A stretch of 5,152 nt of DNA, taken from the NCBI RefSeq assembly GCF_055900595.2, contig NZ_JBVWEU010000009.1, one strand, 5' to 3'. The translations under genes were made by a program, and so were the position numbers. Source of the DNA: a plasmid. Below are positions 133 to 5,113 of this stretch, one piece after another (the stretch's first letter is position 1; each line of letters opens with the position of its first letter). Below the pieces are notes generated by a model that saw only the letters and a list, made by a program, of their open reading frames with translations, had not been told where the DNA came from and did no database searches.

Positions 133-1227
133 ATGGCAAGCTACCATTGCACAGTTAAAACTGGAGCAAAAGGCGTAGCCTTAAAACATGCTGATTACAT
201 TTCCAGATCCGGCGAATATAAAAACTATAAATCGCGGGAGGATCTGGAATTTTCTTCATCCGGTAACATGCCATCATGGGCGAAGAAAAATCCCGCAGAA
301 CTGTGGAAAGCTGCTGATGAATTTGAACGAAAAAACGGGACGGCATACCGTGAAATTGAGATCGCATTACCGCGAGAACTGACACGTGAACAACGGATAG
401 AGCTTGTTGAAGATTTCGTGCAAAAGGAACTTGGTGATCGCCATGCCTATCAGTACGCGATCCACAATCCACCAGGTGCAATTGACGGGAAGGAACAGCC
501 ACACGCGCATATCATGTTTTGCGAACGGATTAATGATGGTATTGAACGCGATCCGCAGCAGTTTTTTAAACGTGCCAACAGCAAATCACCAGAGCGGGGA
601 GGCGCAAAAAAGGCACGCTTTGGCGAGACACAACAAGAGCGAAAATCAGCCCTGGTTGCGCTACGCTCTCACTGGGCTGATGTGCAGAATGAACACCTTG
701 CGCGACACGGCCACCAGTCGCGCGTTGATCATCGTTCGCTGAAAGAACAGGGTATCAAGCGTACGCCGGAGGTGCATCTTGGTCCCGTTCGTGTTGCTGT
801 TATGAACGCTGATCAGGTTTGTGCAATTCTGGCATGGAGAAATGCGGAACGGGAGAAGCTGGAGGCCGAGAAGGAACGGGACAGCATCATTGACCTTAAA
901 ACGACCTTGAAGGAAGCGTTAGCTGAACGGGATAACATGCCACCAACCCTGGATGAGCTTGGGGCAGAATTGAAAGCGTTTGTTGAAAGCTCGTTTGATG
1001 AACTCAATGAGGTAATGCAGCTTAATTCATTGATTGACGGTGCGCTGGACACAATGATGAAGCAATTCCAGGTGGAAGAGGAGCGGAAGCTGCAACAGGA
1101 ACGACTAATTCAGGCTGCGCGAGATGAAGCCGAAAAACAAAGAGAGCTGGAGAGGGAAAGAGTGCGCCGGCGTGCGTATTCTTCACCAGCACCATCACGT
1201 TCACGCGATTATGGTATGAGCCGTTAA
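133..1227 (+). CDS. mobA: mobilization relaxase MobA (MobA/MobL family, MOBQ)
   Basis: 364-aa ORF, ATG at 133 with GGAGG at 116-120. The N-terminus MASYHCTVKTGAKGVALKHADYISRSGEY has the conserved Tyr-containing motif of MobA/MobL relaxases (compare RSF1010 MobA), and a downstream His motif (QPHAHIMF) fits the metal-binding histidine cluster. The C-terminal half is charged and coiled-coil-like (EKLEAEKER, QRELERERVRRR). It sits directly downstream of the oriT-like site. G+C is near half, typical of an enterobacterial backbone. Confidence 0.88.
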   Translation: MASYHCTVKTGAKGVALKHADYISRSGEYKNYKSREDLEFSSSGNMPSWAKKNPAELWKAADEFERKNGTAYREIEIALPRELTREQRIELVEDFVQKELGDRHAYQYAIHNPPGAIDGKEQPHAHIMFCERINDGIERDPQQFFKRANSKSPERGGAKKARFGETQQERKSALVALRSHWADVQNEHLARHGHQSRVDHRSLKEQGIKRTPEVHLGPVRVAVMNADQVCAILAWRNAEREKLEAEKERDSIIDLKTTLKEALAERDNMPPTLDELGAELKAFVESSFDELNEVMQLNSLIDGALDTMMKQFQVEEERKLQQERLIQAARDEAEKQRELERERVRRRAYSSPAPSRSRDYGMSR

Positions 1228-1965: not shown

Positions 1966-2120
1966 TGTTAAGTAACTCATTCCGCCTTATGACTAAGGCT
2001 GCATGAGTATAAAAACTAAAAATAAATGCCCGTACCTAAAAAATGGAACTACATATACTTATGTACCTTGAGAATGACGGAGTTAATTTATCCTTTGTTG
2101 TCAAATTTTTGACCCAAACA

Positions 2121-2160
2121 GGGGCCGCTTGGTAGGGTATCTGAACTCCAATCGGTCCCC
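2121..2160 (-). terminator. candidate intrinsic terminator / GC-rich imperfect hairpin downstream of the minus-strand cargo gene
   Basis: On the minus strand, just after the stop codon (complement of 2172-2174), the sequence GGGGACCGATTGG-(15 nt)-CCAAGCGGCCCC forms an imperfect ~11-bp stem (one bulge, one mismatch) followed by UGUUUGGGUC. It is a GC-rich island in an otherwise AT-rich intergenic region between two convergent genes. The T-tract is weak, so this is only a candidate. Confidence 0.3.
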
Positions 2161-2171
2161 TCATAATGCCT

Positions 2172-2969
2172 TTATGTATTGAATTCTAATACAGGGTCGA
2201 ATTGAAACATGTCATTAAAATAACATAGTGCTGGATTACTAAATGTAATTGGTTCTGCTTCGGTATTTAGGTAATCCAACCATTCATAATAATCTTTTTT
2301 AAATTGCGTGTATGTTTCTTTTGTCATTGGTTTGAATTGATAACCAAAAGTTGTATGAAATCTATATGTGTCATGGTTTTTATGTTTCACTCCTGTTATT
2401 TCAGCAACGGAATTTCTAAAGTTGATTAGTATTTCTTTATCTGAGTTGCTTGCAGGAATTAAAGGTATAATAAAGGCTGGTTGTTTATTATCGTCCCACT
2501 CTGGAGGTAGCGATGGTGTAGATTTTAGATCTACCTTCATTGTAACAGGTTTTTCAAATCCTATTTGTTTATTTTTAAGTGTATTTGCAATTAACTTTGT
2601 CGCTTCCTCCATGCTTATATTCGTGGGGGTGTTATAAGGCCAAGGATTTTTTCTATCGCCACTAATTAAAGAAATGATAGTCATGTGATAAGAGTTTGGA
2701 GGTAATAACACAATGCAATCACCAAAATCTCGTTGAATTCGAACCTGAATATTAAGCATTGCTTTAAATAAATTGCTGTCTTTATCTGTATGGCAGATTA
2801 CGGAACATCCTTTATATTGTGCAACCTTTCCATTGCGATAAAATTTTGCGCCCTTATCAAGACCGTTGTTTTGTGCTATTTCGCATCGATTATTTTCAGC
2901 AAAAACAGTATTAGATGTTATTGCTGCTGTTACTAATGCGGAAGATTTTATAAATGTTCTTCTGTCCAT
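2172..2969 (-). CDS. Tat-signal (twin-arginine) exported protein with 2H phosphoesterase (LigT-like) motifs; AT-rich cargo gene
   Basis: The minus-strand ORF track starts at 3029, but the preferred start is the ATG at 2969 (complement of 2967-2969), preceded by AAGGAA 7 nt upstream. It gives MDRRTFIKSSALVTAAITSNTVFA-ENN: a twin-arginine motif (RRxFIK), a hydrophobic h-region and an A-x-A-like cleavage site (VFA), i.e. a Tat signal peptide. The mature part carries two H-x-T-x motifs flanked by hydrophobics, about 110 aa apart: LLPPNSYHMTIISL and YRFHTTFGYQF. This is the signature of the 2H phosphoesterase superfamily, and the first motif resembles the PPENLH-hydrophobic-T-L segment I recall in LigT. 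G+C is about one-third by eye. Confidence 0.6.
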   Translation of the reverse strand: MDRRTFIKSSALVTAAITSNTVFAENNRCEIAQNNGLDKGAKFYRNGKVAQYKGCSVICHTDKDSNLFKAMLNIQVRIQRDFGDCIVLLPPNSYHMTIISLISGDRKNPWPYNTPTNISMEEATKLIANTLKNKQIGFEKPVTMKVDLKSTPSLPPEWDDNKQPAFIIPLIPASNSDKEILINFRNSVAEITGVKHKNHDTYRFHTTFGYQFKPMTKETYTQFKKDYYEWLDYLNTEAEPITFSNPALCYFNDMFQFDPVLEFNT

Positions 2970-3014
2970 AACAGATTCCTTATTAGTGAATGTGAGTTTC
3001 TTCTTCATTAGAAG

Positions 3015-3042
3015 AATGTAAAAAAACATAAATAAAAGTCAA
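3015..3042 (-). promoter_or_regulatory. candidate sigma70 promoter for the Tat/2H-like gene
   Basis: On the minus strand: TTGACT (complement of 3037-3042), a 16-nt AT-rich spacer, then TACATT (complement of 3015-3020). This lies about 45 nt upstream of the ATG at 2969. The alternative in-frame ATGs at 3029 and 3008 would fall inside or abut this promoter and lack a Shine-Dalgarno sequence. Confidence 0.3.
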
Positions 3043-3237
3043 ACGGTAAAAAACGCCTAGGGGCTTTCACGAAACAAACGGATTTGTACGCTGAACTTTG
3101 ACGTCACCCCGTTTGGGGGAAACTCATCAGAACGCTATATCAAATTCCCGCAAAGGACTTCTCATCCAGGGGAGAAAATTTGTCATTTTGACCCGTTCGC
3201 CGTTCTGTACGGTCGAAACCGATCGCGCATCGCTTTC

Positions 3238-3253
3238 GTGCATAGTTATGCAA
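3238..3253. promoter_or_regulatory. candidate ARG-box-like palindrome (accessory sequence of the cer-like site)
   Basis: gTGCATagttATGCAa is an inverted repeat (TGCAT / ATGCA, 4-bp AT-rich centre) resembling the ARG box half-sites TGAAT / ATTCA. It lies about 100-115 bp upstream of the XerC/XerD core, the distance at which ArgR binds in cer. Confidence 0.3.
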
Positions 3254-3353
3254 CGCGCTAAAAACGATTCTGACGCATTTTTTATGTTTACCCTGGTGTT
3301 TCCTTGTCTTTTTACGTTTTTTACGTCAGAAAGCGACTGAGGGCGTTTTAAGG

Positions 3354-3381
3354 GGTACGTACAAGAGGAGTTATGGTAAAT
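3354..3381 (+). other. cer-like XerC/XerD multimer resolution site (core)
   Basis: GGTACGTACAA-GAGGAG-TTATGGTAAAT. The left arm differs by one base from the ColE1 cer XerC arm as I recall it (GGTGCGTACAA), and the right arm is identical to the cer XerD arm (TTATGGTAAAT). The central region is 6 bp (cer has 8; dif and psi have 6). About 250 bp of non-coding sequence upstream (3100-3353) fits the accessory region. Confidence 0.6.
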
Positions 3382-3402
3382 GGATCGGGTTTGCGGGAAG
3401 GA

Positions 3403-3431
3403 TCGACAGGATTTGCCGTTGGGTGTAGTGT
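3403..3431 (+). promoter_or_regulatory. candidate rep promoter
   Basis: TCGACA (3403-3408), 17-bp spacer, TAGTGT (3426-3431). This would start a roughly 100-nt leader before the rep ATG at 3538, in line with the long antisense-controlled leader of ColE2-type rep mRNAs. Confidence 0.3.
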
Positions 3432-3439
3432 AAGCGACT

Positions 3440-3555
3440 GAAAAACAAACGCCCCTGAAATCATGTCCAGATCCGGCAAGATTCAACATGAAATACAGGG
3501 GCGAGGTCGGTCGATAACCTGGAAGGAATCGTAACACATGAGCGCCGCGCTTCAA
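3440..3555 (-). ncRNA. candidate antisense RNA (ColE2 RNAI-like copy-number control RNA) complementary to the rep leader
   Basis: A long interrupted hairpin in the rep leader: gcccctg (3451-3457) pairs with caggggc (3496-3502), and the inner arms tcatgt (3461-3466) pair with acatga (3486-3491). On the minus strand the stem is followed directly by GUUUGUUUUUC (complement of about 3440-3450), the shape of an intrinsic terminator for a minus-strand transcript. ColE2-type replicons are known to control Rep translation with a roughly 115-nt antisense RNA against the leader. The 5' end and promoter are not resolved, so the boundaries are approximate. Confidence 0.4.
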
Positions 3556-4473
3556 TACTTCGACGAAAATTTACCCCACCGTCCCTATCACACGGATGAT
3601 CTCGCTTTTGGTCTTCGCATCTCCGGCAAAGGGCGTGCGCTTCTTGCGCGGTACATACAGCAGAACCAGCCTCATGCGCAGTTCTGGCTGGTTTTTGACG
3701 TTGACCGCGAGGGGGCAGCGATTGACTGGAGTGACCGGAACGCTCCCGCGCCGAACATCACCGTAAAAAATCCTGTGAACGGTCATGCTCACCTGCTCTA
3801 CGCGCTCAATATCGCCGTGAGAACCGCGCCGGACAGCTCGGTTAAGGCGCTGAAATACGCCGCTGCGATTGAACGTTCGCTGTGTGAGAAACTTTGTGCT
3901 GATGTGAACTACAGCGGACTGATTTGCAAAAATCCGTTCCACCTGGAATGGCAGGTGATGGAGTGGCGCGAGGAAGCCTATACCCTCGATGAACTGGCAG
4001 ATTATCTCGATTTGAGCGCCTCAGCGCGTCGTAGCATCGATAAACATTACGGGATGGGGCGAAACTGCCACCTGTTCGAAATGACGCGCAAATGGGCTTA
4101 CAGGGCGATTCGTCAGGGCTGGCCAGCATTCTCACAGTGGCTTGATGCCGTGATTCAGCGTGTCGAAATGTACAACGCATCGCTTCCCGTTCCGCTTTCT
4201 CCGGCTGAATGTCGGGCTATTGGCAGGAGCATTGCGAAATACACGCACAGGAACTTCACGCCGGAAACTTTCGCACAGTATGTGGCTGATACGCACACAC
4301 CAGAAATACAGGCCAAGAGAGGCCGGAAAGGTGGTATCGCTAAAGGCGAAGCCTACGATGACAAGCGTTTCATGGCGCTATGTATGCTGGATAATGGATA
4401 TTCTCAGAAAGCTATTGCGGCGATGCTGAATGTACATCGTAATACGATCCGTAATTGGGCAATGCACAAATAG
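3538..4473 (+). CDS. rep: ColE2-type replication initiator Rep (plasmid-specific primase-like initiator)
   Basis: 311-aa ORF, ATG at 3538 with AAGGA at 3523-3527. The N-terminus MSAALQYFDENLPHRPYHTDDLAFGLRISGKGRALLARYIQQNQPHAQFWLVFDVDREGAAIDWSDRNAPAPNITVKNP closely matches what I recall of ColE2-P9 Rep (MSAVLQRFREKLPHKPY...QNQPHA...DWSDRN.PAPNITVKNP). The C-terminus has a helix-turn-helix-like segment (YSQKAIAAMLNVHRNTIRNW). The origin motif follows directly after the stop codon, as in ColE2. G+C is near or above half. Confidence 0.9.
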   Translation: MSAALQYFDENLPHRPYHTDDLAFGLRISGKGRALLARYIQQNQPHAQFWLVFDVDREGAAIDWSDRNAPAPNITVKNPVNGHAHLLYALNIAVRTAPDSSVKALKYAAAIERSLCEKLCADVNYSGLICKNPFHLEWQVMEWREEAYTLDELADYLDLSASARRSIDKHYGMGRNCHLFEMTRKWAYRAIRQGWPAFSQWLDAVIQRVEMYNASLPVPLSPAECRAIGRSIAKYTHRNFTPETFAQYVADTHTPEIQAKRGRKGGIAKGEAYDDKRFMALCMLDNGYSQKAIAAMLNVHRNTIRNWAMHK

Positions 4474-4515
4474 CCTATATCAGATAACAGCGCCTTTTCG
4501 GCGTCTTTTTGAGCA
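4474..4515 (+). other. ori: ColE2-type origin of replication (Rep binding and priming site)
   Basis: cctatATCAGATAACAGCGCCttttcGGCGTCTTTTTGAGCAg starts right after the rep stop codon (TAG 4471-4473). It matches the conserved ColE2/ColE3 ori core as I recall it (CCTTATCAGATAACAGCGCCCTTTTGGCGTCTTTTTGAGCA) with a few substitutions. Confidence 0.7.
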
Positions 4516-4666: not shown

Positions 4667-5113
4667 TTACGCACTGTCTTTGGTTAGTAGCTTCTTCCCG
4701 CGTCTTTCCCATTCCTGCCATTTTGGATGGTTGCGCGGTAGCTCTGCGATTCCTGCGAGTGCGCCTACCAGTTCGGCAGCACTACACTTTGGTTTTCCGG
4801 TTTTGCTGTCCACCAGTCCTGCCACAATCATGAGGCCTGCGGCCTTGTAGAGTTCATGATCCCGCGCTTTTCGTTCCGCCCTTGCGGCTGCCTTCCGTTC
4901 TGCCGCTATGATTGCCGTTACCCTGGCTTTTGCTGCGGCTGCTTTCTCTGCGGTTTTTTCTGCCCGTATCAGTGCGGATAACGTTTTTTCATCCGTCGTT
5001 GTTCGGTTTTTTTTCTCTGCCAGTAACACAAGTAATCTCTGCTGCTCTGACGGTGATTTCAGTCCGTTGATGTAGGCAATTTTTGCACTTAACCACTCTT
5101 CACGATTTGTCAT
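4667..5113 (-). CDS. mobC: MobC-like mobilization accessory protein (divergent from mobA across oriT if the molecule is circular)
   Basis: 148-aa minus-strand ORF. ATG is the complement of 5111-5113, with GAGGT 5 nt upstream. The protein is Ala/Lys/Arg/Glu-rich and helical (EKTAEKAAAAKARVTAIIAAERKAAARAERKARDHELYKAAGLMIVAGL, ELVGALAGIAELPRNHP), like the small oriT-binding accessory proteins found beside MOBQ relaxases. Its start is 39 bp from the window end; joining the end to the start puts it divergent from mobA with oriT between them, as mobC/oriT/mobA is arranged in RSF1010-type plasmids. The family call rests on position and composition, not on a recognised motif. Confidence 0.5.
   Translation of the reverse strand: MTNREEWLSAKIAYINGLKSPSEQQRLLVLLAEKKNRTTTDEKTLSALIRAEKTAEKAAAAKARVTAIIAAERKAAARAERKARDHELYKAAGLMIVAGLVDSKTGKPKCSAAELVGALAGIAELPRNHPKWQEWERRGKKLLTKDSA

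Follow-up and report, generated by a model that had tools for sequence, protein, structure and literature searches.

A putative cer-like multimer resolution site of the ColE3 type upstream of rep in a small mobilizable ColE2-like plasmid

In this study, we describe a stretch of plasmid DNA of 5,152 nucleotides (the whole of which is called the window here) and propose that its positions 3168-3381 are very probably the site at which multimers of a small mobilizable ColE2/ColE3-type plasmid are resolved. The site, the parts of which are listed in Table 1, would let a plasmid of about 5 kb escape the "dimer catastrophe" by means of the XerCD, ArgR and PepA proteins of its host. It is a routine member of a family that has been described since the 1990s and was catalogued in 2025, and it is in this sense already known. 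It has little importance beyond annotation. Since none of the matching database records that were checked carries a site annotation at this position, it is useful to mark it.

Table 1. Coordinates of the putative resolution site, of its parts and of neighbouring genes in the window
Feature	Position	Strand	Basis
MobA/MobL relaxase	133-1227		Pfam
Cargo ORF, 285 aa, twin-arginine signal, 2H-phosphodiesterase/DUF1868 domain	2172-3029	minus	
Distal part of the accessory sequence (to the left of the ARG box), putative PepA-contacted region	3168-3238	+	similarity to relatives; PepA by analogy with cer
Pcer-homologous hexamers (tentative), GTGCAT (3238-3243)-15 bp-TAAAAA (3259-3264)	3238-3264	+	hexamer scan and alignment
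ARG-box-like palindrome TGCATAGTTATGCA (TGCAT-AGTT-ATGCA), presumed ArgR site	3239-3252	+	position and homology
Proximal accessory sequence, ARG box to XerC arm, with phased A/T tracts	3253-3353	+	alignment, periodicity
10-bp inverted repeat, TTCTGACGCA (3268-3277) / TACGTCAGAA (3322-3331)	3268-3331	+	alignment
XerC-binding arm GGTACGTACAA	3354-3364	+	sequence read and regex
Central (strand-exchange) region GAGGAG, 6 bp	3365-3370	+	sequence read and pattern search
XerD-binding arm TTATGGTAAAT	3371-3381	+	sequence read and regex
Rep, Replicase PF03090 and PriCT_1	3538-4473		Pfam
TraD-like protein	4667-5113	minus	Pfam

Core, ARG box and accessory sequence

The whole core, GGTACGTACAA-GAGGAG-TTATGGTAAAT, is 28 bp long (3354-3381). 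With the core of ColE1 cer taken from NC_001371 as the reference (GGTGCGTACAA-TTAAGGGA-TTATGGTAAAT), the XerC arm is identical at 10 of 11 positions and the XerD arm at 11 of 11. The cer arms separated by a 6-bp gap have a single match in the window, with 1 mismatch, and the core is no chance match because 0/200 shuffles match this pattern. An 8-bp central region gave zero matches with the cer arms at up to 3 mismatches, which leaves 6 bp as the sole tenable parse, and the multiple alignment agrees with it by placing a 2-column gap relative to cer within the central region, the sole length difference found within the core. The cer-like core with near-identical arms and a 6-bp spacer that was read in a preliminary description of this DNA is therefore borne out, and its division into arms and spacer stands, since neither the alignment nor the 8-bp pattern yielded another one. 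The XerD arm is unique in the window and is the same in cer, parB, mwr, ColA, ColE3 and NTP16. The XerC arm also occurs in pCol-EH41, pO111_4, pKF3-140, pSCU-106-7 and others, and the A at its position 4 is common to the window and CloDF13 parB (GGTACCGATAA).

The palindrome that we presume to be the ArgR site is directly preceded by the G at 3238, the base at which the preliminary description had started the site. By itself the palindrome has no statistical significance: at up to 1 mismatch, TGCAT-N4-ATGCA is expected 0.26 times per window and is present in 46 of 200 shuffles, and the score against a generic ARG-box consensus (11/16 here, 12/16 in cer) does not discriminate in an AT-rich window in which 112 other positions reach at least 11/16. 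We find the assignment credible since homologous sites have this box at exactly the same position and with a conserved sequence. The distance from the end of the palindrome to the XerC arm is 101 bp, and from start to start it is 115 bp to the XerC arm and 132 bp to the XerD arm, which makes the earlier figure of about 105 bp a fair one. This offset of 132 bp between the start of the ARG box and the XerD arm recurs in cer, parB and mwr and in 15 of the first 16 ColE3-like sites that were examined, and the homology thus supports the earlier proposal of an ArgR accessory site at the expected distance. The offset is the same for central regions of 6 bp (parB, mwr, ColE3 type) and of 8 bp (cer), and the interval up to the XerC arm must then differ by 2 bp. 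It is relative to the XerD side that the spacing of the ARG box looks conserved. The box is identical in the related plasmid sites examined except in pZ1323PEC0010-3, which has TGAAT, and the corresponding box of ColE3-CA38, TGAATAGTTATGCA, is marked as an ArgR site (Fournes et al., 2025, Sup file 1, PMC11724359).

The homology extends over the whole site. In an alignment of 14 sites (the window, ColE3, seven related plasmids from PLSDB/RefSeq, NTP16, cer, parB, mwr and ColA), the 153 bp from the ARG box to the XerD arm (3229-3381) align without rearrangement to ColE3-CA38, cer, parB, mwr, ColA and NTP16. Identity to the window is 96.7% for pCol-EH41, 96.1% for LR898881, 87.6% for ColE3-CA38, 68% for NTP16, and 57-64% for cer, parB, mwr and ColA. 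Characterised sites with ArgR-type accessory sequences have been printed by Fournes et al. (2025, PMC11724359), and the ColE3-CA38 entry, ATCGCTTTCG-TGAATAGTTATGCAG-...-GGTGCGTACAA-CGGGAG-TTATGGTAAAT, is, to judge from the letters, visibly the same element as 3229-3381. The ColE3 site, with the ARG box TGAATAGTTATGCAG, is counted there among the previously characterised sites (PMC11724359); it goes back to literature of 1994 (as cited in PMC6856555 and PMC2831885), and its sequence is in Sup file 1 of Fournes et al. (2025). That the window holds a complete accessory-factor-dependent resolution site, which had been called probable, is supported by this collinearity together with the 132-bp spacing.

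Similarity to related ColE2-type plasmids starts at about 3142-3172 in a database search (query 3090-3400) and at about 3165 in the alignments, and unrelated AT-rich cargo lies to the left of the accessory sequence. Since the similarity begins near 3165-3172, the functional unit is likely to comprise about 214 bp (3168-3381). Of the limits given earlier, 3238-3381, the left one was about 70 bp too tight, conserved accessory sequence continuing to about 3168. The published anatomy of cer includes about 180 bp of accessory sequence (PMC5357621, PMC2699498), and we infer by analogy that the distal part in the window would be contacted by PepA. The proximal part is collinear with the accessory sequences of ColE3, NTP16, cer, parB, mwr and ColA. 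Its AA/TT periodicity of about 9.5-10 bp lies above that of 2000/2000 shuffles and matches the phased A/T tracts described for cer-type sites (PMC2831885).

Length and alleles of the central region

Central regions of 6 bp are found in ColE3 (CGGGAG), ColA (CGGATG), parB (GGGATG), mwr (CAGATG) and psi (GATCCA), while NTP16 has 7 bp and cer 8 bp. Among the unique xrs with a TTATGGTAAAx arm in the catalogue of Fournes et al. (n = 53), the length is 28 bp in 30 cases, 29 bp in 16 and 30 bp in 7, and one entry, GGTACGTACAACAGGAGTTATGGTAAAT, is 1 nt away from the core described here (PMC11724359). A 6-bp spacer is, on these sequences, normal for the ColE2/ColE3 family and the commonest length in cer-like plasmid sites, the 8 bp of ColE1 being in the minority, and no new mechanism is indicated for this reason. 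The preliminary description was right in setting 6 bp against the 8 bp of cer; it had chosen dif and psi as the comparators, and ColE3, ColA, parB and mwr, all with 6 bp, are apter. It had also connected the length of the central region with the order of strand exchange and with FtsK dependence, for which we find no support as a rule. The site mwr, which has 6 bp and uses ArgR and PepA, halts at the Holliday junction like cer (PMC2699498), and psi, also with 6 bp, uses XerC and then XerD (PMC5357621), so that the length alone sets no pathway; independence from FtsK derives from the accessory sequences (PMC11724359).

The central regions of related sites read CGGGAG or CAGGAG. The GAGGAG of the window is rarer, and its G3365 differs from the base in most relatives. 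Combined with identical arms, GAGGAG was confirmed by sequence in pSCU-172-4, pSTEC2018_607-j, TO124 plasmid 2 (a 150-kb IncF plasmid) and OZ547118 (82 kb), and a word-exact search found the exact 28-bp core in at least 12 PLSDB records and at least 10 RefSeq complete E. coli genomes. It is conceivable, but unlikely, that the CGGGAG, CAGGAG and GAGGAG alleles act as labels of recombination specificity and that the allele of the window marks a separate "recombination group". If they did, a mismatch at the first exchanged base, beside the XerC cut, would limit the Xer-mediated fusion of co-resident related plasmids, or it might instead be the resolution of heterologous cointegrates that is limited. 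Five records of about 10-11 kb carry two directly repeated cer-like sites, with mismatched centres in 2/5 and identical cores in 3/5. The two with mismatched centres, M19 plasmid D and p_STEC1585_3, are heterologous fusions (CGGGAG in one site, CAGGAG in the other), and the three with identical cores look like dimers or near-dimers or assembly artefacts; five records are too few for a conclusion.

Plasmid context and mosaic ancestry

The gene content and the closest matches class the window as a small mobilizable MOBQ/ColE2-Rep plasmid (MOBQ42/Col156, ColE2-like). Its relatives are E. coli plasmids of 5.0-5.7 kb typed Col156/MOBQ, with about 96-97% identity over 72-77% of the window. The MOBQ42/Col156 ColE2-like type contains a cer-like site (Garcillan-Barcia et al., PMC6856555), and XerCD-type resolution sites are frequent in ColE2-like plasmids (PMC2831885). 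As in the ColE3-CA38 replicon record, the site lies directly upstream of rep. No recombinase was found in the six-frame ORF list, and none of the five ORFs scanned against Pfam gave a recombinase match. In PLSDB, 1,580 records contain homologous sites; most of these records are small mobilizable plasmids of E. coli, and 419 are typed as conjugative. Complete ColE3-type sites were seen inside large conjugative IncF-type plasmids, namely pKF3-140 (147 kb), TO124 plasmid 2 (150 kb) and OZ547118 (82 kb), where they adjoin colicin or microcin genes and probably come from integrated small Col plasmids.

On the left, the site borders on a segment (2105-3100) with a GC content of 0.32-0.36, compared with about 0.5 in the backbone. 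The window has two cargo ORFs of low GC content. The segment had no match in PLSDB by megablast, and the relatives have a LysE-family translocator in its place. On the right, a sub-threshold Rfam match to PK-repBA covers 3449-3571 on the plus strand (33.9 bits against a gathering score of 45, E = 9e-5). This is a long hairpin in the 5' leader of rep and plausibly the target region of a ColE2-type antisense RNAI, and its loop sequence varies among the relatives, as expected for an incompatibility determinant. Right after the rep stop, TATCAGATAACAGCGCC (4478-4494) resembles an origin of the ColE2 type, in agreement with the statement that ColE2 has its origin just downstream of rep (PMC6856555).

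The region 3150-3540 is a mosaic. In its accessory sequence (3228-3353) it goes with LR898881 and pCol-EH41, G3365 and A3366 are of the pSCU-172-4/OZ547118 type, and the loop of the rep leader (about 3460-3520) matches pSCU-106-7, the closest relative in the backbone, whose identity over the resolution site is no more than about 85%. A recombination breakpoint at the core was looked for; the switch lies somewhere between 3353 and about 3456, with no finer placing because 3382-3455 is nearly invariant in all relatives. Such a pattern is in keeping with what is known of small-plasmid evolution, in which Xer sites and the DNA around them serve as junctions.

Proposed function, alternatives and known systems

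By analogy with the characterised sites, we infer protein binding, the order of strand exchange and the activity of the site as follows. Host ArgR would bind the ARG box, as the homology with cer and mwr suggests, and PepA would contact the flanking accessory DNA of about 180 bp with its phased A/T tracts. Together they would wrap the two accessory regions of a supercoiled dimer into a fixed interwound synapse of directly repeated sites, in which XerC and XerD would occupy the core. XerC would then cut where its arm meets the central region and exchange the first pair of strands, and the resulting Holliday junction may be completed by XerD, as in psi, or by Xer-independent processing, as in cer and mwr. 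The predicted outcome is two monomers, formed without FtsK.

One might suppose that the site is a decayed, inactive relic, with arms that look right but with changes of its own in the accessory sequence or the centre that abolish resolution, and that it is kept only through its linkage to the rep control region. Two G-to-A changes, at 3314 and 3323, which turn TTTTGCG into TTTTACG in both copies of a short repeat, are absent from the 14 homologous sites aligned, and the A at 3323 breaks one pair of the conserved inverted repeat on the plus strand. There is also a precedent in the Yersinia pPCP family, in which ArgR-type accessory sequences stand beside an xrs that "appears inactive" (Fournes et al., PMC11724359). 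Nevertheless, the arms, the box and its 132-bp offset are all preserved, and at least 12 independent plasmids carry exactly this core. Apart from 3314 and 3323 the accessory sequence is identical to that of LR898881, with one more difference from pCol-EH41, and functional sites tolerate far larger divergence of this part (57-64% identity to cer, parB and mwr). With every defining part preserved and the core allele found again elsewhere, we regard a relic as improbable. The chromosomal pathway, in which FtsK would activate a XerD-first exchange at the septum in place of ArgR and PepA, has the 28-bp length of the core in its favour, since dif is of the same length. It is made extremely improbable by the full ArgR-type accessory sequence with its canonical spacing, by the plasmid size of about 5 kb, and by a XerD arm of the plasmid type (TTATGGTAAAT) and not of the dif type (TTATGTTAAAT).

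Another alternative is that the main selected role of the region lies in an Rcd-type RNA that acts as a cell-cycle checkpoint, or in the control of rep transcription, with recombination secondary. Pcer and Rcd are features of ColE1 cer and are not necessary for membership of the cer type. The site adjoins the rep leader and the antisense-RNA region, and the inverted repeat, which in 15 ColE3/NTP16-type sites has 97.3% of its cells paired and in two sequences a compensatory change from A:T to G:C, lies where ColE1 has the long Rcd stem. There are also hexamers homologous to those of the best ColE1 candidate for Pcer, which make a tentative Pcer equivalent; that candidate (TTGCAT-15 bp-TAAAAT, obtained by a hexamer scan with a 15-bp spacer) overlaps the ARG box, and the match in the window is weaker. 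A spacer of 15 bp is that of Pcer (PMC5935869). However, the 83 nt downstream of the Pcer candidate in ColE1 fold at -37 kcal/mol (z = -4.6), consistent with Rcd, whereas the equivalent in the window folds no better than shuffles (z = -0.2). The covariation of the inverted repeat across the 15 sites is not significant, 74/500 shuffles being as high, the RNAalifold consensus of ColE3-type and ColE1-type sequences taken together was weak and unconvincing (-4.4 kcal/mol), and the Rfam scan of the full window matched no family at the site. A promoter and terminator scan of 3030-3560 found none and is uninformative here because it disallows 15-bp spacers and also misses Pcer in ColE1. Moreover, a role of this kind would add to recombination and not replace it, and we consider it very improbable that it is the main one.

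The pSC101 site psi and chromosomal dif have a 6-bp centre and the general layout of XerC and XerD arms in common with the window, but their XerD arms are of the TTATGTTAAA(C/T) type (TTATGTTAAAT in dif, TTATGTTAAAC in psi). The accessory sequences of psi are those of ArcA/PepA, and blastn of 3140-3381 against pSC101 gave no match at the psi locus, which, together with the differing XerD arm, speaks against an ArcA/PepA-dependent site of the psi type. A site of the dif type is characterised by a 28-bp xrs, the lack of an adjacent accessory sequence and a large replicon, and dif itself, which has no accessory sequence, requires FtsK (PMC11724359); the length of the core fits such a site, but the full ArgR-type accessory sequence and the plasmid of about 5 kb do not.

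The sites mwr of pJHCMW1 and parB of CloDF13 resemble the window in their 6-bp centre, ArgR-type accessory sequence, 132-bp spacing and identical XerD arm, and differ in the XerC arm, in the centre (CAGATG in mwr, GGGATG in parB) and in the accessory sequence (57-64% identity). In addition, the ARG box of mwr is suboptimal (CGCAT...) and its activity depends on osmolarity (PMC2699498), in contrast to the perfect TGCAT/ATGCA palindrome of the window. ColE1 cer likewise has just one ARG box at an offset of 132 bp from the XerD arm, nearly the same arms (XerC 10/11, XerD 11/11) and about 180 bp of accessory sequence with phased A/T tracts on the XerC side, in a small multicopy plasmid without a recombinase of its own; it differs in its 8-bp centre (TTAAGGGA), in an accessory sequence that is about 58% identical, and in a strongly folding Rcd region (z = -4.6) that has no equally stable counterpart in the window. 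The site of ColE3-CA38 differs at 19 positions in total, two of which are the G-to-A changes specific to the window, and the others include G in place of A at position 4 of the XerC arm, CGGGAG in place of GAGGAG and TGAAT in place of TGCAT in the box. In common with the window it has a ColE2-type Rep, a location upstream of rep, a 28-bp core with a 6-bp centre ending in GGAG, an identical XerD arm, and an ARG box at the same aligned position with no indel before the core.
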